Origin: a phage
Reading direction: 5' to 3' (one strand)
Sequence record: OZ335964.1
DNA length: 64,000 nt
Under the pieces are notes generated by a model that ran no database searches, was not told the origin of the DNA, and saw nothing but the letters and a program-made list of their open reading frames with translations. Of this stretch, positions 9,262-50,516 are shown in pieces. How positions within the stretch are numbered: the first letter of the stretch is position 1; every line of letters begins with the position of its first letter. The position numbers were made by a program, and so were the translations under genes.

Positions 9262-10848
9262 ATGAAAACTACCAAAGAACTGATGGAAAAATGGTCTCCG
9301 CTGCTGGAAAACGAAAAACTGCCGGAGATTGCAACCGCATCTAAACAGAAACTGGTTGCTAAAATTCTGGAATCTCAGGAAGCAGATTTTGCAGTAGATC
9401 CGATTTATAAAGATGAGAAAGTAGTAGAAGCGTTTGGTGGCTTTATCACCGAAGCAGAAGTTGCTGGCGACCACGGTTACGATGCTTCCAAAATTGCCGC
9501 AGGTCAGACTACTGGTGCAATCACCAACGTAGGTCCGGCTGTTATCGGTATGGTTCGCCGTGCTATTCCTAACCTGATCGCATTTGATATTTGTGGCGTT
9601 CAGCCGATGAGCACCCCGACTAGCCAGATCTTCGCAATCCGTTCCGTATATGGTGGCGATCCTCTGAAAGCTGGTGCTAAAGAAGCATTCCATCCGATGT
9701 ATTCCCCGGATGCGTTCCATAGCTCTCTAGCTGCTAAAGGTGCAACCGCTGCTAACCCGGTAGGTACTGCATTCGCTAAACTGACTATGAATACTGCAAT
9801 CAATGAAGGTGATATTGTTCATCACACCTTTGCAGAAACTGGTATTGCATATCTGCAAAACGTAAACGGTCAGGCTGTCACCCCGTCTAAACAGGGTCAG
9901 GAATCTGACGACGAAGCAGTAATGAAACTGATCGAAGAAGGCAAACTGGCTGAAATCGCTTTCGGTATGGCTACTTCCATCGCGGAACTGCAAGAAGGCT
10001 TTAACGGTTCCCAGAATAACCCGTGGAACGAAATGTCAATGCGTATTGACAAACAGGTTGTTGAAGCGAAATCTCGCCAACTGAAAGCCCGTTATTCTAT
10101 CGAAGTTGCGCAGGATCTGCGTGCTGTACACGGTATGGACGCTGACGCCGAATTGAATGCTATCCTGGCTAACGAAGTTCTGCTGGAAATCAACCGTGAA
10201 ATCGTTGACGTAATCAACTTTACCGCTCAGGTTGGTAAGACTGGCATGACTCAGACCGTTGGTTCTAAAGCTGGTGTATTCGATCTGCAAGATCCGATTG
10301 ATACCCGTGGTGCTCGTTGGGCTGGTGAATCCTTCAAATCTCTGATCTACCAGATTGACAAAGAAGCTGCTGAAATCGCTCGTCAGACTGGTCGCGGTGC
10401 TGGTAACTTCATTATCGCTTCCCGTAACGTTGTAAACATTCTGGCTTCTGCTGATCAGGGTATTAGCGTAGCAATGCAGGGCGCTGCTCGTGGTCTGAAT
10501 ACCGACACCACTAAAGCTGTTTTCGCTGGTGTTCTGGCTGGTAAGTATAAAGTATTCATCGACCAGTATGCTCGTCAGGACTACTTCACCGTAGGTTACA
10601 AAGGCGACAACGAAATGGATGCTGGTATCTACTACGCACCGTATGTTGCTCTGACTCCGCTGCGTGCAACTGATCCGCAGTCTTTCCACCCGGTTCTGGG
10701 CTTCAAGACTCGTTACGGTATCGGTATTAACCCGTTTGCTGATAGCAAGTCTCAGTCTCCGAGTGCTCGTATCACTTCCGGTATGTTGAGCAAAGAAAGC
10801 GTAGGTAAAAACGCTTACTTCCGCCGCGTATGGGTGAAAGGTTGCTAA
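9262..10848 (+). CDS. 23: Major capsid protein (gp23-like)
   Basis: 528-aa ORF; TATAAATA late promoter at 9222; strong terminator downstream; paralogous to the gp24-like ORF at 16443. Confidence 0.93.
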   Translation: MKTTKELMEKWSPLLENEKLPEIATASKQKLVAKILESQEADFAVDPIYKDEKVVEAFGGFITEAEVAGDHGYDASKIAAGQTTGAITNVGPAVIGMVRRAIPNLIAFDICGVQPMSTPTSQIFAIRSVYGGDPLKAGAKEAFHPMYSPDAFHSSLAAKGATAANPVGTAFAKLTMNTAINEGDIVHHTFAETGIAYLQNVNGQAVTPSKQGQESDDEAVMKLIEEGKLAEIAFGMATSIAELQEGFNGSQNNPWNEMSMRIDKQVVEAKSRQLKARYSIEVAQDLRAVHGMDADAELNAILANEVLLEINREIVDVINFTAQVGKTGMTQTVGSKAGVFDLQDPIDTRGARWAGESFKSLIYQIDKEAAEIARQTGRGAGNFIIASRNVVNILASADQGISVAMQGAARGLNTDTTKAVFAGVLAGKYKVFIDQYARQDYFTVGYKGDNEMDAGIYYAPYVALTPLRATDPQSFHPVLGFKTRYGIGINPFADSKSQSPSARITSGMLSKESVGKNAYFRRVWVKGC

Positions 10849-10929
10849 TCCACTTTAATTAATCCGGTCGGGTGCAATGCCCGACTTATATGTAAACTTG
10901 ATAGTGTAGTTACTAAAAGTTTTCTTTAA

Positions 10930-10960
10930 GGGAGATCCGAAAGGGTCTCCCTTTTCTTTT
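10930..10960 (+). terminator. Rho-independent terminator after gene 23
   Basis: GGGAGATCC-GAAA-GGGTCTCCC hairpin followed by TTTTCTTTT. Confidence 0.75.
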
Positions 10961-10976
10961 GTCTAAAATAACACAT

Positions 10977-10984
10977 TATAAATA
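10977..10984 (+). promoter_or_regulatory. T4-type late promoter TATAAATA (island genes)
   Basis: Exact TATAAATA after the gene 23 terminator, about 40 nt upstream of ORF 11022. Confidence 0.6.
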
Positions 10985-11021
10985 AGATTGCAAGCCTATA
11001 TTCTAAGGGGAGCGAAAATAG

Positions 11022-11330
11022 ATGCACACACTTATAAAGACCAAAACTCCCGCCGTGTCTGCACCAATTAGCTGCATTCATAGTACCCATATGACGGTAC
11101 AAATGACAGTTGAAAGTGCTGTACAAGGGCAAAAAGTTGTCGCAGAGGCTGTTTTAGAAGGTTCTCTCGATGGCAAAGGTTGGTTCACTATTTCAGAATT
11201 GAAAGCTGATGGTAATGAATATGCAACTGATGGTGGAGCGTTTGAAACATTATGGTCATTTATTCGGGCTAAGGTAAAATCATTATCCAATGGTTCTACC
11301 GTAAATGTGTATCTTGCGAAACGGGGGTAA
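11022..11330 (+). CDS. Hypothetical protein, first gene of the 23/24 island
   Basis: 102-aa ORF with RBS AGGGGA, about 40 nt downstream of a TATAAATA late promoter. Confidence 0.5.
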   Translation: MHTLIKTKTPAVSAPISCIHSTHMTVQMTVESAVQGQKVVAEAVLEGSLDGKGWFTISELKADGNEYATDGGAFETLWSFIRAKVKSLSNGSTVNVYLAKRG

Positions 11331-11333
11331 TGC

Positions 11334-13052
11334 ATGAAGCTAAATCCAGATGCGGTTATTAATGCTGGTTCTGTTGGCGGTGGCACTGGTTCCGGCGGTG
11401 GTGGTATTCAGATCGGAACTAATGTACCATGCGGAATTAAAAATACTCATCGTTTCGAAAATGAAGCTGAACGAGACGCATATTTTACCACTAAATTTGC
11501 GGAATTGGATCGCCTAAAAACAATTATTGTTTGCGGTGGTAAACTTCAATTGTGGACAGGTGCGACCGCCGCATCGCCTTATGATAATACCAAATGGGTC
11601 GATATGACCTGGGTAATTCAAGGCGAACAGGGTACTACTGGTGAAAAAGGCGAGAATGGACGAGGTATTGCCAGAATTGAAGCGCAAATCTCTGATGATG
11701 ATCGCGAATGGAAACTAGAAATTACCTACTCAGATTCTACCACAGAAACATTAACTTTCCCTGTACCTGATGTGTTAGCTAATGTTGCGCAACGTCTTAC
11801 TGCATTAGAGGTAAGATGGACAGCAACTGGTCAGCCAGTTAATAACCTTGATGCGACTGTAGATCAGGGTCGTTATCCGGTTGGAGATAACACATACGGT
11901 AAGCCACCAATGATGGCAAATAAGGGGTCTGCTGATGTATATGTCATTGAGGGTAGCATTATTCAAGTGGTTCGTTCTATTGACGGTGGCGTGTACTCTC
12001 GTATCCGACACAACGGTCATTGGAGCGAGTGGGTCTCACAAAGTGGCGGTGGAAATGGTAGCGGTGGAGGCTTGACGGGTGATCAAGAAGCTATGTTAAC
12101 TAGCTTAGTTAATCGTCTACCGGAAATTTCACCAAATACACGCGATCTTAACACTCTACAGAAGCAAGGTCGTTTCTGTTATGATGAACGTACTACAAAC
12201 CGCCCTAATGGTACTCAGGTACACGGGTCGGTAGATGTTCATGCTTGCAAAGATCATGTATTACAAATCGCAACCAGTCTCGATGGTGTCATGTCACATC
12301 GCGCACTGGACAAAGCAAACGGTACATGGTCTGATTGGTTGCAGATAAGCGATCATACTGGTGGGGCTACGATTTACGCGTTTCCTAGAGTTTCTAGTGT
12401 ATTCACCACTTCGCAAAACTTGATTGAAGTCACAAAACCGGGCGCTGGATTCTTTTATATTCCGTGGAAATATGTTATTCATGATAACTATGGATGCACT
12501 CCACAGATCCAACACCCAGACCGTCAACAAGATGCGGATCATTGGTGGGTATGCCCGAAATCCGGTAGCTATGACATGGAATTATTGCTTGATATGAGTT
12601 TTATCAAGACACAAGCAACTATTCCGGTTCTTGCTGCTGTAACGGCATGGCACAGGAAAGCAGACGGAAGCGAGACAGAAGCCGCACGTTATCAAATCCC
12701 GTTTGATGTTACCCAGAAAAACCAGAAAACAAGATCCGCTAAACTCCGCATTAATAATTTGCCATCCGGCGAGATGATCCGCTGGCAGGTAAAACTCAGT
12801 GGTTATAGCTGGAGCGAAACTGATAACCCAGACGTAGCATTTGCACCCTTCCGCACTATGCTGATGGTCGATGAAGCAGAATACGACACAGCAAAACGAA
12901 TTGGTGCTCTTGCGTTCAATACATGGGCTAACTTCCATGCGAAAAAAGGTTTTGCTGCCGCTGTAAGTGAGGACGAAAATCAGAAAGCACGTCTTAACGC
13001 CGTTAAATGGGGTGCTGTCATTGAATCCGTCCAAGCTCAGTCACAACCATAA
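11334..13052 (+). CDS. Gly-rich protein with short collagen-like G-X-Y run; possible fibre or decoration protein
   Basis: 572-aa ORF; poly-Gly segments (GSVGGGTGSGGGGIQ, SGGGNGSGGG) and GEQGTTGEKGENGRG; RBS GGGGG. Confidence 0.6.
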   Translation: MKLNPDAVINAGSVGGGTGSGGGGIQIGTNVPCGIKNTHRFENEAERDAYFTTKFAELDRLKTIIVCGGKLQLWTGATAASPYDNTKWVDMTWVIQGEQGTTGEKGENGRGIARIEAQISDDDREWKLEITYSDSTTETLTFPVPDVLANVAQRLTALEVRWTATGQPVNNLDATVDQGRYPVGDNTYGKPPMMANKGSADVYVIEGSIIQVVRSIDGGVYSRIRHNGHWSEWVSQSGGGNGSGGGLTGDQEAMLTSLVNRLPEISPNTRDLNTLQKQGRFCYDERTTNRPNGTQVHGSVDVHACKDHVLQIATSLDGVMSHRALDKANGTWSDWLQISDHTGGATIYAFPRVSSVFTTSQNLIEVTKPGAGFFYIPWKYVIHDNYGCTPQIQHPDRQQDADHWWVCPKSGSYDMELLLDMSFIKTQATIPVLAAVTAWHRKADGSETEAARYQIPFDVTQKNQKTRSAKLRINNLPSGEMIRWQVKLSGYSWSETDNPDVAFAPFRTMLMVDEAEYDTAKRIGALAFNTWANFHAKKGFAAAVSEDENQKARLNAVKWGAVIESVQAQSQP

Positions 13053-13330
13053 TGGGGGTGTATAGGGTTATAGCTGGAGCGAAACTGATAACCCAGACGT
13101 AGCATTTGCACCCTTCCGCACTATGCTGATGGTCGATGAAGCAGAATACGACACAGCAAAACGAATTGGTGCTCTTGCGTTCAATACATGGGCTAACTTC
13201 CATGCGAAAAAAGGTTTTGCTGCCGCTGTAAGTGAGGACGAAAATCAGAAAGCACGTCTTAACGCCGTTAAATGGGGTGCTGTCATTGAATCCGTCCAAG
13301 CTCAGTCACAACCATAATGGGGGTGTATAG
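12801..13330. repeat. Perfect tandem duplication, 2 x 265 bp (12801-13065 and 13066-13330)
   Basis: Second unit repeats the last 84 codons, stop codon and 13-nt 3' flank of the 572-aa gene; identical translations appear twice in the ORF track on both strands. Confidence 0.85.
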
Positions 13331-14253
13331 TGGAACATACAGGAAAAAGGTTGCTAGATCTTAGAAATGGTTTTAATCAGGGTGAAATCACAGAAATCAC
13401 TGGTATGCCAGCTAGTGCTCTCATGGAGGCAGACGTAAGCCGCATATCTAATCAAATCAACACCGAACTAATTGATCCGGTGATTGATTTTGTTATTGCT
13501 TGCGATGAAGTTATCGCAAATGCAGCCGAGGATGCTTTAAACAAAGCCGATAGCGCCGAGAGTATGGCAGAAGTCGCAGACCGAACGGCAGGTCAATCTA
13601 TGAGCAAGGCAACCGATGCTCTAGACAAAGCGACGACCGCAGAATCGGAAGCAGGGCGAGCGCATGATCGCTTAGACAAGTTGAACATTCCACAAATCCC
13701 GAACTTAGACGGGCACACATGGAATTGGCTACCACGTTCTTTCGATAGCGTGTCTATTCAGTTGGGAAGCGGTATCACATTAGTTGATCCAGTGAACGGC
13801 AAGCCTCACATTACATGGACACCAATTAGACAGAACTACGAGACAGGAAGATATTACATCGAGGGTCGTTTTGAAGCCAGATTTAAAGTAATGTTAATGG
13901 ACTGGATTCAACAATCATCCGGTGGTCATATTTTCTATCTAGGTGGTGGTCAAAGTCTGGCATCATTTAACGGACGCGTGTCACTGGTGAATATCTCGAA
14001 TGATATAATGAAGCCGACTAATATACAAGTCAACGCATACACCGCCAAAGATACTCAAGTTATTTTCGGTGCGTGTGCTGATGCGGCAATTTCAACATCA
14101 AGGGAAGTTAAACTAGCTTTCATGGTTGATACTGGAACAGATAAATTTGACCGATATAATGATCCTGTATATGTTGATTTGGTAATGACATTCCAACGCG
14201 ACGGGGAAGGAAATTTCGGATTCGGAAATCTTTTCCCAAGCCTAAATCCTTGA
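13330..14253 (+). CDS. Fibrous protein with N-terminal domain shared with the next ORF; GTG start
   Basis: 307-aa ORF; N-terminus (ALMEADVSRISNQINTELIDPVIDFVIACD) is paralogous to the 621-aa ORF; Ala/Asp-rich helical segment then a globular C-terminal part. Confidence 0.6.
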   Translation: MEHTGKRLLDLRNGFNQGEITEITGMPASALMEADVSRISNQINTELIDPVIDFVIACDEVIANAAEDALNKADSAESMAEVADRTAGQSMSKATDALDKATTAESEAGRAHDRLDKLNIPQIPNLDGHTWNWLPRSFDSVSIQLGSGITLVDPVNGKPHITWTPIRQNYETGRYYIEGRFEARFKVMLMDWIQQSSGGHIFYLGGGQSLASFNGRVSLVNISNDIMKPTNIQVNAYTAKDTQVIFGACADAAISTSREVKLAFMVDTGTDKFDRYNDPVYVDLVMTFQRDGEGNFGFGNLFPSLNP

Positions 14254-14311
14254 TCCTATTTGTCGGGGAGAAATCCCCGACAACGTTTTCTAATATCAAC
14301 GAGGATATGAT

Positions 14312-16177
14312 ATGTTAAGAAACCGTGCAATCAAGTCAACCCCTAATTTCATTCAAGGGGATATGGGAAATATTACCTCAAGAGATAATCATGCATTAAT
14401 GGAGCATGATATTCCAACAATCTCTGACACAATTAACAGGGATCTAATTACACCAGTAATTGATTTTATCAACGAATGCGATAATATTCTACTCGATGGA
14501 ATAGGGACGGTCGCAGATACTGTTGATATTATCGAACGGAAAGCTGATAATGCAACCGAAATTTCTAATTACGCCAGTGAAAAAGCTATCGAGGCATTGG
14601 CAAAATCAAAAGAAAGTTTGACGAAAGCGGAAGAAGCAAACACGGTAGCAAATAGTGTTGCTGGTGATGCGCAAACAGCATTAACTAAAGCTAATGAGGC
14701 TAAAACGCTAACAGACAGTCTTAAAACAAAAGTTGATGGTTATGACACCAGAATCACAGAAATTGATTCTAAGGCAACTACAGCGAAATCTGACGCGTCT
14801 TTAGCAAAAGATAAGGCTGATGCACTGGAAACAACGGTCAATAGCGAGAAAACTAAACTGACAGCATTGACTACTAAGGTCGATACTCTAGAAGGTGATA
14901 TTATCAATGCTGTGGATCTGGCTGAACAAGCAAAGAATAAAGCAGATTCAGTAGAAACACAAGCCATTAATAACACCACAGAGATTACCGCTTTAAAAGG
15001 CCGTGTATCAACTGTAGAGACACAATCAGCAGAAGCCAATAGACTGGCTACCCAAGCCGATAAAAATGCGTCTACGGCGCTCTCAGACGTTTCTACGTTA
15101 TCTTCAAAGGTTGATGATGTTAAGGCTACAGCCGACGCAGCAAGCGCAAGCGTGGCGGGATTAACTCAGGATATCGGAGAAGTGCGGACACTGACAGAAA
15201 CAGCCACGACAAACATCACAACTCTTTCCGGTAAAGTTGATACCATAAAGACAACCGCAGATACAAACAAGACCAATATTGAAGCATTAACCACTCAGGT
15301 TAATGAACACACAACTAAGATCGGAGAGTTGGAAACTGGTGTATCTAACGTTAATGGTGAACTTACCACGGTCAAAGGATCGCTAACCACGGTTCAGGAA
15401 ACCGCAGCTAATGCACTTCAAAAGGCCACCAGCGCAGAAACAAAGGCAGGTAATGTAGAGACACTAATTAATAGTCTTACACCGCGTGTGGACGCGTTAG
15501 AAGGCGATTTAGGTACATTAGAGAGCACTGTTGCTGATTTATCTCCTAAAGTGACAGCAGCAACCGAAAAAGCGACTATGGCATTCAACAAAGCAACTGC
15601 CTTAGAGCAAAAAACGGAATCGATGGAAACAGAAATCGAAGATGTTCGCCTCGATGCTGGGACCGCGATGGCAGAAGCGACACAAGCTAATAGTGAGATC
15701 GCCACGTTAAAAACTAAAGTCGGTGAACTGGAAAGCGATGTTGACACAGCCGATACAATCGCAAATGAAGCATTAGCAGTTGCACAAAGGGCGGATACTA
15801 ATGCAAATACAGCCAATACAAATCTTGCAACGATAACACCAATCGTGGAAAGATTGAATGGTGCATTTGTCGGTATGATTCGAATCAGATACAAGGAAAC
15901 TCGAACTATAACGAAAGCTGGCGGTAACACTCGTCGTAAGTTGATAATCCCACAAGTTCGAAAAGGTGATATGGCATTTGCGGCATTTTTAAACGTACCA
16001 GATAAACGAGATAGTATTCTGTTTAACTGTATGATTCCTGTCGACGGCGAAGTTCACATGGCAATAAAAAATCTGCATACCGCCGCATTAGATTTTAACG
16101 ATTGGGTTCAAATATTGGTATTCCAGACAAGTACGGGTAATCCTATTGTTGACCCAGAAACAAGCCTAACAAACTAA
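14312..16177 (+). CDS. Long coiled-coil fibre-like protein with distinct C-terminal domain
   Basis: 621-aa ORF; about 450 aa of low-complexity T/A/E/K-rich helical sequence; N-terminus (ALMEHDIPTISDTINRDLITPVIDFINECD) paralogous to the 307-aa ORF. Confidence 0.65.
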   Translation: MLRNRAIKSTPNFIQGDMGNITSRDNHALMEHDIPTISDTINRDLITPVIDFINECDNILLDGIGTVADTVDIIERKADNATEISNYASEKAIEALAKSKESLTKAEEANTVANSVAGDAQTALTKANEAKTLTDSLKTKVDGYDTRITEIDSKATTAKSDASLAKDKADALETTVNSEKTKLTALTTKVDTLEGDIINAVDLAEQAKNKADSVETQAINNTTEITALKGRVSTVETQSAEANRLATQADKNASTALSDVSTLSSKVDDVKATADAASASVAGLTQDIGEVRTLTETATTNITTLSGKVDTIKTTADTNKTNIEALTTQVNEHTTKIGELETGVSNVNGELTTVKGSLTTVQETAANALQKATSAETKAGNVETLINSLTPRVDALEGDLGTLESTVADLSPKVTAATEKATMAFNKATALEQKTESMETEIEDVRLDAGTAMAEATQANSEIATLKTKVGELESDVDTADTIANEALAVAQRADTNANTANTNLATITPIVERLNGAFVGMIRIRYKETRTITKAGGNTRRKLIIPQVRKGDMAFAAFLNVPDKRDSILFNCMIPVDGEVHMAIKNLHTAALDFNDWVQILVFQTSTGNPIVDPETSLTN

Positions 16178-16206
16178 TTAATTTCATCAACTATAGGGGA
16201 ATTAAC

Positions 16207-16359
16207 ATGAGCAAGAAAAAAGATAGCTATGTTCAAATTACCAAGAAACAGTATGATGAATTAATGTTAGCGGTGGCCTATGCCATAATGCGATCTGATT
16301 TGGCGATCCAGCAAATCGAAAAGACAAATAAAAGTCTTGAGAATGTAGCAGCAAATTAA
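16207..16359 (+). CDS. Small hypothetical protein (50 aa), below the ORF-track size cutoff
   Basis: ATG with RBS AGGGGA; ends just before the terminator at 16366. Confidence 0.3.
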   Translation: MSKKKDSYVQITKKQYDELMLAVAYAIMRSDLAIQQIEKTNKSLENVAAN

Positions 16360-16365
16360 TTTTTT

Positions 16366-16397
16366 GGGGAATCCTTAACGGGATTCCCCTTTCTTTT
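16366..16397 (+). terminator. Rho-independent terminator closing the 23/24 island
   Basis: GGGGAATCC-TTAAC-GGGATTCCCC hairpin followed by TTTCTTTT. Confidence 0.7.
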
Positions 16398-16404
16398 ATA
16401 AATA
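16397..16404 (+). promoter_or_regulatory. T4-type late promoter TATAAATA (gene 24)
   Basis: Exact TATAAATA overlapping the end of the terminator T-tract, about 40 nt upstream of gene 24. Confidence 0.6.
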
Positions 16405-16442
16405 CAACCATATCCATCAATAAAAATACAGGATTCATAAAC

Positions 16443-17684
16443 ATGGCACAGATTTTCAATGAACTGTTAAAGGAATCGACTTCCTCAGTAGCAAACCAGA
16501 CAGCAAGACCACAATTATTGGCACTTACCCGCGCGGTTAACAACCTGATTTTCTCCGATCTGGTGGCAATTCAGCCAACAAATCAGCCTATTTGTGCATT
16601 ATTCGGACTTCGTTATGTTAACCGTGATGGTCAAATGACTTATCGTACCGCAGGAACGTATGGTGGTGCGGCTGGTAATCGTGATGTTTTTGAAGATTTT
16701 CAGAAAGATAAAGAATATCAGGTCGGTGATCATTTCAAATTTGATAATGTTGTATATGAAGTGATTACAGAAGGTGCAGTAGGACAGGATATTTCTACCG
16801 AAGAAGAAGCGATCTTTAAGGGAGTAGTGTCAAATAAAATTCGTTTCTTTAGTGATTATGCACCTACTGAATATTTCGAAGATGCAAACACTGAAATTTC
16901 TACTACCGATTTTGATTTTGAAAAATGGCAAGTTAATGTCGGATCTCGTAAACTGAAAACAGAATTTACGACCGAATTGATGCAAGATCTGGAAGCAAAC
17001 CAGATGAACTCTGAAAATACCGTTTTGGATCTTCTTGCTACCGTTGCATCCGAAGAAATCAATAAAGATATTATCCAGAAACTGATTACGGTATCAACTC
17101 GTTATAAAGTTAAGAGCATTACACCTGATGGCGTTCTTTCACTGGTTAACGTTCAGGACGCACCAGCACAAGCGCGTGAACTTTATCGCTATGCATGTGA
17201 AATGAGTAATCAAATGCTTCGCACTTCGTCTTTCGGTGGTACTTATGTTCTTGCATCTTCTCGTGTTGTTGGCCTCCTGCAAGCTAGTGGCTGGATGGAA
17301 GAAACTGACAATGCACTAAGTGAAGGTCGTTTACGTTGTGGTTTAGAAGTTTATGCGGACACTGTAACCCCGTTTGATTATATGATCGTTGGTTGTAAGC
17401 ATATGGTCGGTGATATGGAGAGCGTAGGTTCTCTGTTTTACTCCCCATATACAGAATCAGACGGAGCGGGTGCATATAAGAGCATCATCGATCCTAATAG
17501 CTTCAACCATAAAGTAGCGATTATGAATAGATATGCGCTTTCTGTCAACCCATACACAACCAAAGCTGATCAAGAAAACAACCAAGTAATCAAGGGTGAC
17601 GAGTGGGGCAAACTTGCCGGACGTTCAGAAATGTCCTACATGCTGGGTATCGAACTACCACCTCTTGAGATTGACAACGCTTAA
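16443..17684 (+). CDS. 24: Capsid vertex protein (gp24-like)
   Basis: 413-aa ORF, paralog of gp23 as in T4; TATAAATA at 16397. Confidence 0.9.
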   Translation: MAQIFNELLKESTSSVANQTARPQLLALTRAVNNLIFSDLVAIQPTNQPICALFGLRYVNRDGQMTYRTAGTYGGAAGNRDVFEDFQKDKEYQVGDHFKFDNVVYEVITEGAVGQDISTEEEAIFKGVVSNKIRFFSDYAPTEYFEDANTEISTTDFDFEKWQVNVGSRKLKTEFTTELMQDLEANQMNSENTVLDLLATVASEEINKDIIQKLITVSTRYKVKSITPDGVLSLVNVQDAPAQARELYRYACEMSNQMLRTSSFGGTYVLASSRVVGLLQASGWMEETDNALSEGRLRCGLEVYADTVTPFDYMIVGCKHMVGDMESVGSLFYSPYTESDGAGAYKSIIDPNSFNHKVAIMNRYALSVNPYTTKADQENNQVIKGDEWGKLAGRSEMSYMLGIELPPLEIDNA

Positions 17685-18272
17685 CTAAATATCTAACCAA
17701 GACAAATCAGATCCGCCCAAGATTTTTTCGACGGCGGATCTATTTTCTTGATGATATAAGTTAAAACATGGTATCCCATGTCTACGGGCAACATAAACAG
17801 CAATTCGAGTCCCGCCAGAAACAATCCCATTAACTTCTTTCGCCCAAAATAACACACAATCTACAGGATCATCAAGTGTCTCACCTAAGACTTGAGCAAC
17901 ATTTCTAGAAAACAGATTTTGCATGTATAACGGTATAGAACGAGGATTATCATAAACGTGTTCTAATTCATCCATCGCCAGATTTTTTTGTTCTAAGGTT
18001 TGCCATGCAATCACATCATGACCGTTATGCTTGTGGTCATAAAACTTCCAATTTGGAATGAAAATTTTTCTATAATCTGGATCGTAATACTTCATGAAAG
18101 CATTGTCCATACCGTAAGCCCCTCCAGAATGCGCTACAACGCGATTTTCTGACAATACCCTCCCAATGGTACTAGCCATTATCAAAATGTCGCTAGGCGC
18201 TTTTCTAGAGCCGATTAAAGCACATCTACGAAGTGGTTTTACGCCAAATAGATCTTGTAACTGGTCAAACAT
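17685..18272 (-). CDS. DprA/Smf-like (SLOG superfamily) Rossmann-fold protein
   Basis: 195 aa; motifs LIGSRKAP, HSGGAYGMD, LFSRNVAQVLG, SGGTRIAVYVARRHGIPCF resemble DprA signatures; RBS GGAGGAAA. Confidence 0.5.
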   Translation of the reverse strand: MFDQLQDLFGVKPLRRCALIGSRKAPSDILIMASTIGRVLSENRVVAHSGGAYGMDNAFMKYYDPDYRKIFIPNWKFYDHKHNGHDVIAWQTLEQKNLAMDELEHVYDNPRSIPLYMQNLFSRNVAQVLGETLDDPVDCVLFWAKEVNGIVSGGTRIAVYVARRHGIPCFNLYHQENRSAVEKILGGSDLSWLDI

Positions 18273-18424
18273 AATATTTCCTCCATAGAAAGCAATATCA
18301 TACTACAAGTTAATAACAAATACAAGTATCCGCGTAGCGGAAGCGAGCACAGCGAGCAATAAAACACTTCTAGCAATTGACTAATAAATGCTCGAAACAA
18401 ATTTTTATTATTCTATAAGATAAG

Positions 18425-18599
18425 TCTTCGTTTTGATCATAATTTAATCATACATGTAAAAACTACACAAAAGGATATCGCTTCGCGAACTCCTACGGAG
18501 TATAACATTTGTGTTACAATATGTATTGATTAATAATTAATCAAAGATACATTTTCTATGTTCTAAAGATCTTTCTTCGTTTTGATCATAATTTAATCA
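18425..18599. repeat. Two copies of a 26-bp direct repeat (TCTTCGTTTTGATCATAATTTAATCA) in an AT-rich intergenic region
   Basis: Exact copies at 18425-18450 and 18574-18599, 149 bp apart, inside the 413-bp noncoding region upstream of the DprA-like gene. Confidence 0.7.
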
Positions 18600-18652
18600 A
18601 ACGGTATTAATATTGTCCATATGTAAACTAAAATTATGCTAATAGCAGATAC

Positions 18653-18677
18653 AAAAAAGCCGCCCAGAAGGACGGCT
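18653..18677 (-). terminator. Terminator after ORF 18686
   Basis: Minus strand GC-rich hairpin followed by TTTTTT. Confidence 0.5.
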
Positions 18678-18685
18678 AATGTTAA

Positions 18686-19123
18686 TTATTTGTTGATAAC
18701 GATCTGATTTCGGCGAATGGTAACATTACTCTTAGAGATGATCAGATCATCCGGCACTACGTTAGTTTTGTATGGCTGGAAGCGAACAAGCATCTGATTG
18801 CGTTTAGACCCTTCCTTAATCTTGATTTCCATCTGGATATTGTTGCCTACGTGAGCAACCGCAATTTCACCTTTATTATCATAGACCCACTTGCTGGTAA
18901 CGTCGCCAGCGAAAGCCTTAATAACTTGCAATGCTTCGTCGTATGCGGTAGAACTGTGAACGTTCAGAAGACCAGCCGTTGCCAGACGTGAGCAAGTGAT
19001 CGCCGGAGACTGCCAAACATCAACATTAATTTGCTCAATCAGAGTAACACCGCCCTGATCAACTGCTTTGAATGCTTCGAACATTGCTTTTTTCATTGCT
19101 ACGTGGTTTTTACGGAATTTCAT
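18686..19123 (-). CDS. Hypothetical protein
   Basis: 145-aa ORF followed by a rho-independent terminator. Confidence 0.5.
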   Translation of the reverse strand: MKFRKNHVAMKKAMFEAFKAVDQGGVTLIEQINVDVWQSPAITCSRLATAGLLNVHSSTAYDEALQVIKAFAGDVTSKWVYDNKGEIAVAHVGNNIQMEIKIKEGSKRNQMLVRFQPYKTNVVPDDLIISKSNVTIRRNQIVINK

Positions 19124-19169
19124 AATTAGTCACCTCTATTGATTAGTTATTCATAATATTAATTACAAA

Positions 19170-19445
19170 TCAGGACATTGCCCGTTTGAATGCGTCCATT
19201 ATAACAGTGTTATTTGGCTTGTCAACACGTTTTTGAACTTTATTTTTAAATTTTTTGTTGATGTGGTGTTTACGATAAACAACCTTTTCACGGTTGGCGT
19301 AAGCCTCGCGTGCATCTTTTACCATCAACCATGCTTTAGCGGCATCTTGTCCGCTGATCCCGCCAATCTTCTTAGCAATATCAACAAAATTAAGACCGTG
19401 GTCTTCGCGTAGCATGTAAACCATTAACGCAGTTTTCTTGTCCAT
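19170..19445 (-). CDS. Hypothetical protein, possible HTH (start chosen at MDKK)
   Basis: ORF-track frame 19170..19553; internal ATG at 19445 has a G-rich RBS and overlaps the stop of the upstream small ORF. Confidence 0.4.
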   Translation of the reverse strand: MDKKTALMVYMLREDHGLNFVDIAKKIGGISGQDAAKAWLMVKDAREAYANREKVVYRKHHINKKFKNKVQKRVDKPNNTVIMDAFKRAMS

Positions 19446-19642
19446 CACTTCGCCCCATTGACGATTAACAGTATAGTGATCAGTACCGGAAACTGGATCA
19501 TGACAGTACCAAAAAACCGGATAAACGCATTTTCTGATTTCCATACATGACATGCGACTAGCTGATAGACCATTGTTGCAACCAAAGCCAGAAAATACAT
19601 CTCGATTGGTGTTTCTTTGATCAATCGTACAATCTCATTCAT
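19445..19642 (-). CDS. Small hydrophobic (membrane) protein
   Basis: 65-aa ORF with RBS GAGGTG; mostly hydrophobic residues. Confidence 0.4.
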   Translation of the reverse strand: MNEIVRLIKETPIEMYFLALVATMVYQLVACHVWKSENAFIRFFGTVMIQFPVLITILLIVNGAK

Positions 19643-45114: not shown

Positions 45115-45591
45115 TTATTTTTCTTGATGCTCGCGCTCGTACTTTTCGAAATAAAATTCTACTGGCTGGTCGTGGATTGACAGTAAGCCAAAGCGTTTAG
45201 CCGCTCGCAACCCCATATTGCGCTGAATGTACTTCTGGAAGTTCTCGCGTATACACTTACGCCAGTATTCTAAGCCCATACAGCTTTTATAAAGATTGCA
45301 TTGCACACACGCCGGATTCATGTTATCAAGTATATCATGCTCCGGTTTATGCATTCCTACAACCTTATACTTCCACGATCCATCATCATTACGGGCAATT
45401 CGTCCATTTTCATCATAGACTACTTTTGAGCGTCGTAATACTGGTTTGATGTGGTCTGCGTGCCAGCGATCCCCTAGTTCCTCGCCACAATAGGCACAAT
45501 GTCCACCATATTTCATTTTCAGGATCTGGCGTTGCTCTTTCTTTGACAATTTTTTAGGTTTAGGGGCTTTCGCCCCTTCATTATCACACAT
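45115..45591 (-). CDS. HNH endonuclease family protein
   Basis: CAYCGEELG...HADHIKP...NMNPACVQCN; translationally coupled to the ligase gene. Confidence 0.6.
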   Translation of the reverse strand: MCDNEGAKAPKPKKLSKKEQRQILKMKYGGHCAYCGEELGDRWHADHIKPVLRRSKVVYDENGRIARNDDGSWKYKVVGMHKPEHDILDNMNPACVQCNLYKSCMGLEYWRKCIRENFQKYIQRNMGLRAAKRFGLLSIHDQPVEFYFEKYEREHQEK

Positions 45592-47086
45592 CGAATACCT
45601 CTTTTACTGTATTTGCAGTGGTCTTGTCGTAGCGAATACGTTTGATGATCGGGAGAAATAAAGAGAACTCCGGTTCATCTTCTTTACGTGATTTGCTGCG
45701 GATATACCCGTTGCATGTCATCTCAATGACTTTTCCAATCAGGTTATGACGGTCAGCCCATAACATTTCTCGGTCAAGTTCATTTCGACGATCGAACGGA
45801 ATTACACGTTCGATACCATCATCACCTTTTTCGGTTGTAGTGTCGGTTAATCCCGATCCGGTGTTAGTCATCATTCGTCCACACGCACTACGGACAGTAA
45901 AACCGCCTACCTTATTGGGGTCTTTACTATGCGGATATACATCAACAATTTCCGCGTCGAAGTCAATCACTTCTTTAAATTTAACCTGATCTTTACTACG
46001 GCGATCTTCAAATACACCATGCAGATTTTTAAGGATAATACCTTCTAAGCCCATGTTTACATAGCGATGATATACTTCGCGAGCTTCATCGATATTGTTA
46101 ACTACAGTATTTTCGATTATCTGAACACGAGGATCGTTAAGTTCTTCAACAATCTGTTTTAGTTCTTCGAATCGATCTTTATATTGCTTCGTTGCTTTCT
46201 CGTTTCCGTAATACACATCACGGTCGATAACATCCCAGACAGTGTAAACAATACATTGGGCTTCTTCTTTTGGAATAGTTCCTTTCAGTGATTTGTTGAG
46301 GATACCATTTCCGGTCTGACGATCTGCAACAACGGATTCTTTTACTGCTTCCGCTACTGGCGTTAATGGTATTTCCTCTTCTTCAAATATCCATGACAGA
46401 GTACCATCATAAACGCTCTCAACGAAGTTCTGCGCTGGTGTTTGCGAAAGGGTAGGCATATATACCAATTCGCCATCTAGAACAATTCCACGGCCTCGTA
46501 GACGCTCTAAAACAGAAAACAAATCATCCAGCCCCTGGTAGGTATTACCTGAACGGGTATATATTGCTAATGTTTCCCCGTCAATATCAGCCATACCACG
46601 AGCGCCATCACTTTTAAGTTGTGCATATGCCGGATATTTGATATTAGCAATAGCCTTATCAGAATATGACGATGCAAGGTGGCATGGTTGCTGGGGGATC
46701 AGTTTCTTCCATACCTTGTTTGAAGTGGTAGCGGAACAACCGCATTCCAGATCACGATTCAGGACCATCATTGCAACTTTAGCATCATCTTCTGACAAGC
46801 AAGTCAGAGTATCGGTAACTAGCTGTAATGCTGCATTACCAGTTACTTGACGCGTGGCAAGTTTATTTTTAAAGACCTGCAATGCACCGGATAAAGACAA
46901 TACAGACGAATAGCGCGATGGTTTATCGTATTTCTTTACGCCAAACGTAACCTGTTTGCAATATGCCAGATAAAAGCATTCTTTCAGCGTTTCATTGCTT
47001 GCAGATTCTTTCAGGATCTTTTCTTTCAGCGATGTTTTGTCGGTCGCTGCAAGCTGGTTAATGATATTAAGAATTGACATTTTCAC
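45584..47086 (-). CDS. 30: ATP-dependent DNA ligase (gp30)
   Basis: Aligns with T4 DNA ligase: TGNAA, MMVLNRDLECG, YAQLKSDGARG (adenylation lysine motif), EGIILKN, GGF. Confidence 0.9.
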   Translation of the reverse strand: MKMSILNIINQLAATDKTSLKEKILKESASNETLKECFYLAYCKQVTFGVKKYDKPSRYSSVLSLSGALQVFKNKLATRQVTGNAALQLVTDTLTCLSEDDAKVAMMVLNRDLECGCSATTSNKVWKKLIPQQPCHLASSYSDKAIANIKYPAYAQLKSDGARGMADIDGETLAIYTRSGNTYQGLDDLFSVLERLRGRGIVLDGELVYMPTLSQTPAQNFVESVYDGTLSWIFEEEEIPLTPVAEAVKESVVADRQTGNGILNKSLKGTIPKEEAQCIVYTVWDVIDRDVYYGNEKATKQYKDRFEELKQIVEELNDPRVQIIENTVVNNIDEAREVYHRYVNMGLEGIILKNLHGVFEDRRSKDQVKFKEVIDFDAEIVDVYPHSKDPNKVGGFTVRSACGRMMTNTGSGLTDTTTEKGDDGIERVIPFDRRNELDREMLWADRHNLIGKVIEMTCNGYIRSKSRKEDEPEFSLFLPIIKRIRYDKTTANTVKEVFDV

Positions 47087-47546
47087 CTCGTTTTGTTAAA
47101 CGTTCACGAATATCATTGAGGATACTACAAAATTCCGATTCGGTCAATATGGTCTTTAACGGATCAGTTCCACCTATGCTATGACGCAATTTCTTATTTC
47201 CGGTAGCGAGTAATGCTTTACAAAATTCTGGGTTATTCCGTGCCATCGTAACAAATGCCAGATGCACCAGTCTGTAATAATGCTCACTCATTCTATGAAT
47301 CGGGCGACCCTGAAAATATAGCATGTGATTCTCTATCTTTTCAGCCCTTCCGGTTCTTTTTGCTTTGCCACCGTGCATCAAAAAGATTTCTCTTTGTCTC
47401 TGAGGGTTCTTAAATCTTAGCCCCTGTAAAAATCCTTCTGTGCTGTTAATATCGCAACCAAATAGACGGAATGGTCTTTTATTGAAATTACTCAATTCAC
47501 CCGATGGATAAGGTCCACCCGCATAGATATCAATTTCAGAAGTCAT
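47067..47546 (-). CDS. NADAR / YbiA-like (DUF1768) domain protein
   Basis: Aligns with E. coli YbiA: SGELSNFN / GDFSNFA, STEGF / SEHYF, QREIFLMHGGKAKRTGR / REEIRRV..AARMGR, ALLATGNKKLRHS / LLATAPAKLVEH. Confidence 0.65.
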   Translation of the reverse strand: MTSEIDIYAGGPYPSGELSNFNKRPFRLFGCDINSTEGFLQGLRFKNPQRQREIFLMHGGKAKRTGRAEKIENHMLYFQGRPIHRMSEHYYRLVHLAFVTMARNNPEFCKALLATGNKKLRHSIGGTDPLKTILTESEFCSILNDIRERLTKRGENVNS

Positions 47547-48982: not shown

Positions 48983-49186
48983 TTAACCGTATACGCGAAA
49001 GTATTCTACTGTTCCGTCGCTATACTGTTTTACATTGAATGTATTCACGCCATGATCATTGCTCATAATGACATATACACTGCGACGCTCATCACCAAAC
49101 GGGTTAACTGGTGCGGGTTCAATTTCAACATTAAAACCACGTTTAGCAAGTGCTTCGCCTAATTGCTTGAGTTTATCGGTAAACAT
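48983..49186 (-). CDS. Hypothetical small protein
   Basis: 67-aa ORF between pseT and cd. Confidence 0.4.
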   Translation of the reverse strand: MFTDKLKQLGEALAKRGFNVEIEPAPVNPFGDERRSVYVIMSNDHGVNTFNVKQYSDGTVEYFRVYG

Positions 49187-50064
49187 TAAAAGTCTCCGTA
49201 GTTAACCTGAAAACATTCTACACCAATTGAGCGGTACATGTCAACCACTTGATCACGGTCGTCTACTGCCAAAACAACATGATAACGCGGTGCAATTTCA
49301 GAGAAGAAAATCTCTTTCTTCACTTCATGGTCAGGACGACGATCATTAGTTTCGCGCTGGAAGTGATCACTAGGTTCAATACCTTGTTCACGCAACCATT
49401 GCAGCGTATCTTCCTCGCAAACATCCTCACGTCCTGAGCACGTAATGATACGATAGCCATTATCACGATACAGTTTAAGCATTTCGATCACTTGCGGACG
49501 CGGTTTATCTTCTTTGACCTTTGTCCAGTCAAACGGATGACGACCGCCCTTATCCGCTAATGTTCCATCAATATCAAAGATCACTGCCTTCGGCAGCATT
49601 GTATTCGGTTTGTATACTTCTTGACCCATATATTCCTGCATCAGATAAAATTGGTTACGCAAATGAGAAAGTGGAATTGCTTTCTCGCCGCGATAGAAAT
49701 TACGTTTCTTTAGTGTCTCAAATGATTCATTGAACACTTGTTCAGTATACACCGCGTTAAATTCTTTTGCAAGTTCTTTGTAGAATACACGATGTTTTTC
49801 TTTCAGGTTGGTATCGGAGATAATGATACTCAATCCGCGTGATAGAGTCTCACGAGCAATCATTCTCTGAATAGACTCTACCAGCTTTTCTTTTTCCTTA
49901 GTATACTTGTATTTCAAAAGTGAGTCAACACCAAACAACATAAGACGAAGATCATCGCGATTCACATTACGATAATTACTAAACCGTTTACATGTTTCCA
50001 TAGCCCATGTAGTTTTACCAGACCCAGAACAACCAACGGTTAAAATCACTTCACATTTCGGCAT
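49186..50064 (-). CDS. pseT: Polynucleotide 5'-kinase / 3'-phosphatase
   Basis: Walker A GCSGSGKTT plus HAD phosphatase motif DIDGTLAD; start set at MPKCEV. Confidence 0.85.
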   Translation of the reverse strand: MPKCEVILTVGCSGSGKTTWAMETCKRFSNYRNVNRDDLRLMLFGVDSLLKYKYTKEKEKLVESIQRMIARETLSRGLSIIISDTNLKEKHRVFYKELAKEFNAVYTEQVFNESFETLKKRNFYRGEKAIPLSHLRNQFYLMQEYMGQEVYKPNTMLPKAVIFDIDGTLADKGGRHPFDWTKVKEDKPRPQVIEMLKLYRDNGYRIITCSGREDVCEEDTLQWLREQGIEPSDHFQRETNDRRPDHEVKKEIFFSEIAPRYHVVLAVDDRDQVVDMYRSIGVECFQVNYGDF

Positions 50065-50516
50065 TATTTCTCCTTCGGTTTGCACCGTTCCTCATTAAGT
50101 TCTTTGCGATAATAACACATGATCAACTTACTTTCAAGTGTATATCTCTTAATATCAGCCAACCAAACTCTAAATTTTTGGGAGTCCTCCCACGACATAG
50201 AAACTCTAGGTTTACCGTCTATTGTATCCACTTTCAGGTTAATGTCAACTTTTTCTATTGGTGCTGGTAGTGGAGGATGTAATTTCGGTTCCTGTGAATA
50301 ATGGTCCATTGTACACGAAGAAAGAGCAAATACAATAGGCACAGCGAAGACATGGATTATGGCGGTCTGAAAATTCTTATGTGCTTTCTTAAACATCCAG
50401 TGTATCACGAAAATTGAAAACACCATAAGGATAATAATGCTTGCACCTATCCCCAGATAATCAACCAGATTAAAATTGTTTATCTGCTCTTGCGTAGGCA
50501 ATATTTCTATGCTCAT
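50064..50516 (-). CDS. Membrane protein
   Basis: Two hydrophobic helices at the N-terminus. Confidence 0.5.
   Translation of the reverse strand: MSIEILPTQEQINNFNLVDYLGIGASIIILMVFSIFVIHWMFKKAHKNFQTAIIHVFAVPIVFALSSCTMDHYSQEPKLHPPLPAPIEKVDINLKVDTIDGKPRVSMSWEDSQKFRVWLADIKRYTLESKLIMCYYRKELNEERCKPKEK

Follow-up and report, generated by a model that had tools for sequence, protein, structure and literature searches.

A phage SLOG protein related to DprA, and the RNA ligase 2 and ADP-ribose genes found with its relatives

A 64,000-nucleotide stretch of phage DNA (sequence record OZ335964.1, called the window in what follows), which its sequence places among the Krischviruses, T4 relatives of the RB49/JSE type, carries at positions 17685-18272, next to gene 24, a gene for a small protein with a SLOG domain. 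The protein and its 'DprA-like' label are already in public records, and its family has been discussed bioinformatically before. What is added here is that the SLOG gene is a conserved downstream partner of rnlB, the gene for RNA ligase 2 (Rnl2), and not its replacement, and that the family overall stands in contexts of ADP-ribose and nucleic-acid repair, with a database name that probably misstates its function. We favor the reading, at a probability of roughly 0.4, that the protein is an accessory module that would bind nucleotides or single-stranded nucleic acid in counter-defence or repair, and that it is not a loader of RecA or UvsX.

Family membership and conserved residues

The original prediction, drawn from the letters of the DNA, was of a DprA/Smf-like protein of the SLOG superfamily, and profile searches bear this out far beyond chance. 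Residues 15-187 of the window protein match positions 4-181 of the 191 in phrog_768 (E 2e-60, 204.6 bits), which is the significant profile match to a DprA or SLOG family on which that prediction hung, and the profile of the family in turn matches DprA crystal structures at an E value of about 1e-5, with LOG, the MoCo carrier and ShosA at 0.16-1.9. The open reading frame (ORF) had been placed beside gene 24 at its exact coordinates; it lies on the minus strand and encodes 195 residues. Each of the four motifs quoted for it can be read in the protein (GSRKAP at residue 21, SGGAYGMD at 49, FSRN at 121 and SGGTRIA at 152), and the KxDG motif of RNA ligases is absent, as had been said. Two further SLOG families that had been put forward for comparison did not hold up, as there is no Pfam match to YpsA and none to DUF2493/YAcAr, and the hhalign probability against a YAcAr phage protein is 3%.

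The family phrog_768 is a large one of phages and mobile elements, and it is the SLOG clade closest to the DprA domain in sequence and structure; DprA is its best match by both measures, as the nearest clade by a narrow margin. Homologues of the window SLOG protein were found by tblastn in 1,343 phage records. A word-indexed protein search gave only 6 close relatives, so a full hidden Markov model (HMM) scan of 1.84 billion cluster representatives was used, which returned 4,315 relatives (2,731 at E<=1e-10), mostly stand-alone proteins of 160-220 residues.

Conservation was read from an alignment of 136 family members, in which G50, D56, R123, G153, G154 and T155 are invariant, and at least 90% of the members share each of G21, R23, P26, S49, A52, G54, P73, N124, Q127, G130, A158, A162 and N171; all of these residues are retained in the window protein. 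The pocket residues are G21-S22-R23, S49-G50-G51-A52-x-G54-x-D56, L120-x-x-R123-N124-x-x-Q127 and G153-G154-T155. The SLOG nucleotide-contacting loops among them (G21-S-R23, S49-G-G-A-x-G54-x-D56 and G153-G-T155) are invariant or at least 90% conserved, while in the remaining segment R123 is present in all relatives, N124 in 131/136 and L120 in 111/136. The DprA domain is defined by the motifs G-S/T/A-R and F/L/Y-x-x-R-N/D (Wang et al. 2014, PMC3950713), and both are found in the window protein, as G21-S22-R23 and as L120-F121-S122-R123-N124. In HpDprA, residues R52, F140, R143 and N144 bind single-stranded DNA (ssDNA) and form a small pocket that takes one flipped-out thymine, with the neighbouring phosphates also held, and the signature PGGxGTxxE separates LOG from DprA (PMC3950713). 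This signature is absent from the window protein, in which the position of the LOG Glu is taken by A158 (sequence SGGTRIAVY).

At the level of the predicted structure the SLOG fold of the window protein is certain, because the AlphaFold model built on the 136-sequence alignment has a predicted local distance difference test score (pLDDT) of 96.3 and a predicted template modelling score (pTM) of 0.91; the first model had a pLDDT of 83.7. The model has the three-layer Rossmann-like fold of the SLOG superfamily (DprA, LOG, YpsA, MoCo carrier, ThsA-SLOG), and in Foldseek comparisons with the viral models of BFVD the members of the family, at template modelling (TM) scores of 0.6-0.8, stand apart from YAcAr/DUF2493 proteins, at about 0.4.

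The protein nevertheless falls short of DprA proper. It scores 22.3 bits against PF02481, where the cut-off is 29.6, over residues 15-60 only, and 14.4 against TIGR00732, where the threshold is 191.15. The alignments to DprA, whose domain has some 205 residues, start at about DprA residue 36-45 and cover only the first 45-60 or so residues. Also lacking are the strands that open the extended Rossmann fold at its N-terminus, and the N-terminal SAM and C-terminal winged helix/DML1 domains that most DprA proteins have. When the 136 relatives were scanned singly, Pfam gave weak DprA matches for 95/136 (best E 8e-7), weak LDcluster4 matches for 18/136, and matches to YpsA, LOG or YAcAr/DUF2493 for 0/136, and in the window protein no Pfam domain was found other than the weak DprA match. 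Because the N-terminal part, the SAM and winged-helix domains and the curated score are all missing, the window protein is best described as a minimal DprA-clade SLOG domain and not as a bona fide DprA.

Association with RNA ligase 2 and with ADP-ribose genes

In tblastn with a concatenated Rnl2+SLOG query, 428 phage records showed the two genes side by side on one strand, counted where a single place spans 80% or more of the query, compared with 1,343 records that hold the SLOG gene and 1,414 that hold Rnl2. Five lineages, namely Gelderlandvirus (S16-like), Marfavirus, Mosugukvirus PM2, Muldoonvirus SP1 and the Jiaodavirus-type Klebsiella phages, share the order hoc - 24.3 - x - rnlB - SLOG, which is followed by the convergent gene 24. 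According to the coordinates of five pairs, the coding sequences of rnlB and the SLOG gene overlap in four lineages, by 22, 11, 1 and 11 nucleotides (nt), and are separated by 9 nt in PM2, an arrangement of the kind expected for translational coupling. Besides the site next to gene 24, the pair has a second genomic position in Slopekvirus, and in the unclassified Enterobacter phage Entb_46 too it lies away from gene 24; NAMPT is 1.3 kb downstream. In Serratia phage SP1 (locus L021, 1001-3564) the annotation of the RNA ligase gene reads 'with possible intron', and further ORFs separate it from the SLOG gene, a variant of the rnlB-SLOG locus that may contain a mobile insertion. Two neighbours, of 479 residues in Aeromonas AS-gz and 376 residues in phiAS5, were considered as NAMPT or Rnl2 and are neither; they have no Pfam match.

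Each gene also occurs without the other, rnlB without the SLOG gene in T4, T2, T6, RB3 and JS98-type phages, and the SLOG gene without rnlB in the Krischviruses. The window gene does not lie directly 3' of rnlB, which is what defines the Rnl2-linked subgroup; tblastn with four Rnl2 proteins detected neither an Rnl2 homologue nor a leftover piece of rnlB anywhere in the window, the 413-bp spacer upstream of the SLOG gene included. Similarly, in the complete genome of Krischvirus Cognac the single match to the Rnl2+SLOG query is to its SLOG part. The nearest relatives of the window protein outside the Krischviruses (41-46% identity) are Rnl2-linked versions, and the Krischviruses are best understood as having lost the ligase and kept the SLOG gene. 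The earlier statement that the gene stands where T4 carries rnlB is right in that the window has no Rnl2 homologue, but related phages carry rnlB and the SLOG gene in tandem, and to say that one replaces the other is misleading, since in the closest relatives the SLOG gene is the downstream partner of rnlB. No paper linking rnlB with a DprA-like gene was found in the literature searched, and no biological role is known to have been established for RNA ligase 2.

DarG-type Macro domains reverse the ADP-ribosylation of thymidine. NADAR reverses guanine ADP-ribosylation on ssDNA and RNA (PMC11543638, PMC11833690), and T4 gp30.3 (AdfN) counters DarTG1 (PMC11825919). Both kinds of domain, and DUF4326, recur with the SLOG family, as fusions and as neighbours. 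Among the top 150 representatives, which were surveyed for fusions, five proteins are fused to NADAR (P0017, P0019, P0047, P0125 and P0148), one to DUF4326 (P0137) and one to RecJ (P0138, DHH-DHHA1-OB). The metagenomic P0017 and P0019 are proteins of 1,475-1,488 residues in which the domain of this family stands together with two other SLOG domains, YAcAr and LDcluster4, and with NADAR at the C-terminus. In bacterial loci, there is a Macro-SLOG-NADAR triple fusion in a metagenome-assembled genome (L077, 4482-6134) and a second SLOG-DUF4326 fusion in Novimethylophilus (L027, 4869-6314); the giant multi-SLOG/NADAR proteins and these two kinds of fusion are ready 'Rosetta stone' constructs for function.

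Bacterial loci were collected with a 12-sequence sub-alignment and phage loci by tblastn on annotated phages, the narrow alignment A1 having given only 6 viral loci, and neighbour domains were identified with our own HMM profiles for NADAR, Macro, DUF4326 and PhoH, blastp clustering having given few shared clusters. Relatives occur in at least 240 bacterial loci, which dereplicate to 39, and either fused or within 5 kb there is NADAR in 8/39, Macro in 6/39 and DUF4326 in 6/39, the union being 16/39. Pakpunavirus has its genes in the order Prs - NAMPT - Macro - x - x - SLOG, and Menderavirus has Nudix and NAMPT 1.5 kb upstream of SLOG. A PhoH-like ATPase is the immediate neighbour of SLOG in Lahexavirus and VLCpiM5a, and 3/39 bacterial loci have one within 5 kb; thymidylate synthase and DNA polymerase are its neighbours in Agrobacterium phage OLIVR5, and RdgC is near the SLOG gene in three bacterial loci, while uvsX, uvsY or recA stands beside it in no lineage sampled. 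In a survey of viral SLOG domains, Iyer et al. 2022 describe fusions to Macro, NADAR and DUF4326 and propose that the SLOG domains degrade or sense soluble ADP-ribose signals (PMC9503650).

Possible functions of the SLOG protein

The protein keeps, in its G-S-R loop, its L-x-x-R-N helix and its SGG and GGT loops, the residues of which DprA makes a small basic pocket for one flipped-out base and the adjacent backbone phosphates of ssDNA. On the reading preferred here, the SLOG domain would detect a nucleotide that is damaged, nicked or bears ADP-ribose, most plausibly in single-stranded or nicked nucleic acid. It would thereby assist or regulate enzymes of nucleic-acid repair or clean-up during the counter-attack of the host, and the enzymes served across the family would be the adjacent RNA ligase 2 and the fused or adjacent NADAR, Macro, DUF4326 and RecJ. 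In the window Krischvirus, the SLOG protein would act as a separate protein, its ligase partner having been lost, with an AdfN-type NADAR and Pnkp encoded elsewhere. A single idea, the binding of a nucleotide unit in the service of such enzymes, would account for the Rnl2 pairing, the RecJ fusion and the NADAR and Macro fusions, because those hydrolases act on modified bases of ssDNA or RNA. We consider it fairly unlikely that SLOG is a hitherto unrecognised, nucleic-acid-directed factor in the RNA or DNA repair of phages that captures a flipped-out, ADP-ribosylated or damaged nucleotide in single-stranded RNA or DNA and either hands it to RNA ligase 2, NADAR, Macro or RecJ or itself cleaves the base-ribose bond of an ADP-ribosylated base by LOG-type chemistry.

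Several points weigh against the preferred reading. No biochemical or genetic study of any family member was found in the literature searched, and the window SLOG gene has neither a fused partner nor Rnl2, which makes reasoning from partners indirect. The window protein is not basic, its isoelectric point being 6.4 where the family median is 8.5, and strong binding to nucleic acid is less to be expected for that reason. Accessory genes cluster in phages, so some neighbourhoods, NAMPT at 1-3 kb among them, may be incidental, and the invariant D56 and T155 could be catalytic. Moreover, the group that was first to analyse viral SLOGs favors soluble ADP-ribose derivatives, and not nucleic acids, as SLOG ligands or substrates (PMC9503650).

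Such soluble compounds are at the centre of a possible though doubtful alternative, in which the protein is a small-molecule enzyme or sponge that cleaves the N-glycosidic bond of a free nucleotide or NAD+-derived signal, or sequesters it, with adenosine monophosphate (AMP), ADP-ribose, isomers of cyclic ADP-ribose and ADP-ribose 1''-phosphate (ADPr-1''-phosphate) as candidate ligands, and so blunts Thoeris-like or NAD-based defences. LOG hydrolyses nucleotide N-glycosidic bonds and the ThsA SLOG binds 3' cyclic ADP-ribose (3'cADPR), and both are among the structural matches; D56, R123 and T155 are invariant; and this is the role that Iyer et al. 2022 predict for viral SLOGs on the strength of Macro, NADAR and DUF4326 fusions, which are reproduced here for phrog_768 (PMC9503650). 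Slopekvirus, Pakpunavirus and Menderavirus have genes of NAD+ salvage (NAMPT, Prs, Nudix) at a distance of 1-3 kb, the proteins P0017 and P0019 resemble anti-signal polyvalent proteins in having three kinds of SLOG with NADAR, and PhiDruSM1 ORF83, a YAcAr protein of another family that is needed on AVAST type III, is a predicted AMP binder. However, PGGxGTxxE is absent and the catalytic Glu position holds an invariant-type Ala, A158, the conserved motifs are those of the non-catalytic DprA, and no known sponge or hydrolase for such signals was found in this family in the literature searched. A small-molecule role would also leave unexplained both the Rnl2 pairing in 428 phages and the RecJ fusion.

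The original prediction had offered a recombination accessory factor or a nucleotide-signal binder, and between these a binder of a nucleotide-derived ligand would fit better, because NADAR, Macro and DUF4326 recur as fusions and neighbours, while a recombination factor appears the less likely option because the phage has UvsY and UvsW and the family contexts involve no recombinase. As a recombination mediator, the protein would bind phage ssDNA and load UvsX or the host RecA, in aid of recombination-dependent replication or repair. This would agree with DprA being the best structural and sequence match, with the conservation of both DprA ssDNA-binding motifs, with the name 'DprA-like DNA recombination-mediator protein' in the JSE RefSeq record and PHROGs, with the DNA polymerase neighbour in OLIVR5 and the nearby RdgC in three bacterial loci, and with the suggestion of Iyer et al. 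2021 that phage copies of DprA/Smf might be extra ssDNA-binding proteins (PMC7824862). We nonetheless hold it to be unlikely, as the match is below the curated DprA thresholds with only some 45-60 residues aligned, the protein has neither the SAM and C-terminal domains nor the N-terminal stretch of the DprA domain, the window already encodes the T4 mediator UvsY and the helicase UvsW, and the recurrent partners in the lineages sampled are RNA ligase and ADP-ribose hydrolases, with no uvsX, uvsY or recA neighbour. Others have reported that ORF83 is without the DprA residues for dimerisation and the RecA interface, which is only suggestive here since that protein belongs to a different family. 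Very unlikely, in turn, is an antitoxin mimic, that is, an orphan DprA-like antitoxin of ShosTA/PsyrTA-type systems that would neutralise the phosphoribosyltransferase toxin once the host system is triggered. There is a precedent for orphan antitoxin-like counter-defence in AdfN, and ShosA is a DprA-like antitoxin that binds ssDNA and RecA (PMC12961424), but the weak PADLOC matches to PsyrA (E 4e-5) and ShosA (E 3.6e-4) are limited to residues 15-61, a generic motif region of 45 residues, and the family profile fits ShosA (E 1.8) much less well than canonical DprA (E 1e-5). The window protein also lacks the SAM domain and extra C-terminal helix that ShosA needs for stability and dimerisation, and ShosA does not bind ShosT directly, which leaves simple mimicry with no obvious mechanism.

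The family is very large, with members in about 1,340 phage genomes and in hundreds of loci in bacteria, and with over 4,000 clusters of sequences. Its database name implies a part in recombination that the comparative evidence does not bear out, and is to be treated as a structural label only. If the SLOG protein were a nucleic-acid-directed factor, T4-type RNA ligase 2 would gain a long-missing physiological partner and pathway, and a third protein class would stand beside Macro and NADAR in reversing nucleic-acid ADP-ribosylation. As a partner in substrate recognition or catalysis, it would connect RNA repair, the DarTG-type defences that ADP-ribosylate DNA or RNA, and phage counter-defence, and as a small-molecule sponge or hydrolase it would represent another anti-signalling family.

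Gene surroundings and comparison with known systems

The coordinates of the SLOG gene, its surroundings and other loci of the window are collected in Table 1. Gene 24 and the SLOG gene are convergent with zero bases between them (17684/17685), and the terminator and hairpin scan found no terminator between the two; their transcripts therefore have to overlap. In PM2 the corresponding genes overlap by 14 nt. The neighbours of the SLOG gene in the window are gene 24 and a gene for a 145-residue protein without a Pfam match, and, because a terminator-like hairpin with its T-run follows the upstream gene at 18686-19123, the SLOG gene is suggested to be a separate transcription unit. The 413-bp spacer presumably holds the promoter of the SLOG gene, and the scan for a consensus promoter matched no better than in shuffled sequence.

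The spacer also contains an exact 25-nt direct repeat, GATTAAATTATGATCAAAACGAAGA, on the minus strand at 18425-18449 and 18574-18598, with its copies 149 bp apart. It is found nowhere else in the window, 0 such repeats are expected by chance, and a TTTACAT-like element precedes both copies, which may be duplicated early-promoter cassettes. A SorY RNA in the spacer was rejected as a chance-level match (21 bits, with a gathering score of 111), and beyond it Rfam gave no match for the spacer or the repeat.

Table 1. Position of the SLOG gene, of the elements around it and of other features in the window
Feature	Position	Strand	Remarks
SLOG gene, 195-residue single-domain protein (phrog_768, 'DprA-like')	17685..18272	-	ORF; ATG at 18272-18270
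Shine-Dalgarno GGAGG of the SLOG gene	18280..18284	-	7 nt 5' of the ATG, read from the sequence
AT-rich non-coding spacer, 413 bp, 30% GC	18273..18685	.	Occupies the rnlB position of related T4-like phages
Small GC hairpin TCCGC-TAC-GCGGA	18329..18341	-	About 57 nt 5' of the SLOG start codon; hairpin scan
Terminator-like hairpin, then T-run	18658..18677	-	8-bp stem, 6 GC pairs, TTTTTTG; just after gene 18686-19123
Gene 24 (capsid vertex protein)	16443..17684	+	Pfam Gp23 family, E 1e-88; JSE annotation
Alanine-zipper/coiled-coil ORF, 307 residues	13330-14253	+	
Alanine-zipper/coiled-coil ORF, 621 residues	14312-16177	+	
Hoc-like Ig-domain ORF, 456 residues	19837-21207	-	55% identical to JSE Hoc
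Hoc-like Ig-domain ORF, 847 residues	21122-23665	-	Matches JSE Hoc in its C-terminal part only
ATP-dependent DNA ligase (gp30)	45584-47086	-	Directly beside the gp30.3/AdfN-type gene
gp30.3/AdfN-type NADAR homologue	47067-47546	-	Pfam Phage_30_3, E 2e-38
Pnkp (kinase and HAD phosphatase)	49186-50085	-	2 kb from the NADAR gene

Over bases 16400-19600 the window shares 98.6% identity with Shigella phage JK32 and about 90% with JSE and roughly 50 further records, and Escherichia phage UPWr_E1 encodes a protein 100% identical to the window SLOG protein. The phage encodes NADAR and an RNA-end-healing enzyme, Pnkp, and does not encode Rnl2. Between gp23 (9262-10845) and gp24 there is a gap of about 5.6 kb in the window (10846-16442), compared with about 0.64 kb in JSE. 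Two or more alanine-zipper/coiled-coil proteins with related N-termini are encoded in the additional DNA, which may be an inserted fibre or decoration module. The last 47 residues of the 307-residue protein are 64% identical to a 52-residue JSE ORF, which looks like a remnant of it. The two Hoc-like ORFs have similar C-terminal ends (YVHPIPWR-TSF...) where JSE has one hoc of 404 residues, and the pair looks like a duplicated and expanded head-decoration gene.

In the case of the PHROGs and RefSeq entry 'DprA-like DNA recombination-mediator protein' (JSE YP_002922241.1), the window protein is a full-length member and there is no difference between them; the name is inferred from weak DprA similarity, and no experiment was found behind it. 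Compared with DprA/Smf itself (PF02481; 3MAJ, 4LJK/4LJR, 3UQZ), the window protein is a sub-threshold match, a single domain of 195 residues without the SAM and winged-helix domains or the first 35 or so residues of the DprA domain, and while DprA/Smf pairs with competence and recombination genes, the phage family pairs with RNA ligase 2 or ADP-ribose hydrolases. ShosA and PsyrA have a SAM domain, an extra C-terminal helix, a toxin partner and RecA binding, whereas the window protein shares only the first motif region with them and shows neither a full-length match nor an adjacent gene for a phosphoribosyltransferase toxin. LOG (PF03641) and the ThsA SLOG are 10-17% identical to the window protein, which has no PGGxGTxxE signature, no Pfam match to them and no SIR2 or TIR partner; the papers on Thoeris and on N4-like anti-signalling hotspots proved unrelated to this SLOG family.

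The only phage SLOG with a genetic phenotype found in the literature searched is PhiDruSM1 ORF83, whose knock-out loses plating on AVAST type III (10.1101/2024.04.14.589459) and which is predicted to bind AMP (10.1101/2025.06.06.658234). Like the window protein, it is a small stand-alone phage SLOG that has also been annotated 'Smf/DprA', and it has DUF4326-fused relatives, but it belongs to another SLOG family: its CAjan orthologue carries the LOG-like motif PGGAGTMD and matches Pfam YAcAr at E 2e-18. Placing it in the family of the window protein was rejected, at an hhalign probability of 3% and a Foldseek TM score of about 0.4, compared with 0.6-0.8 within the family, and in the comparison with ORF83 the 10-56.7 kb region of phage 9g held no homologue. 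The CAjan protein, gp82 (locus L103, 35867-36259), is annotated 'GTP-binding domain' and is a YAcAr/DUF2493 (PF10686) SLOG at E 2e-18, in which R89, N90, T112 and D114 match the residue numbering reported for ORF83; its annotation is probably wrong.

A further comparison is with the viral SLOGs of the NAD+/ADP-ribose conflict network of Iyer, Burroughs, Anantharaman and Aravind 2022. That paper treats them collectively as YpsA-like, with a predicted degradation or sensing of soluble ADP-ribose signals, and its passages on RNA ligase, Rnl2 and DprA mention neither the Rnl2 pairing nor the DprA-type ssDNA motifs (PMC9503650). The partners described there are the same as those of the present family, namely Macro, NADAR, DUF4326 and NAD salvage, with the same bias towards larger phages (PMC9503650).

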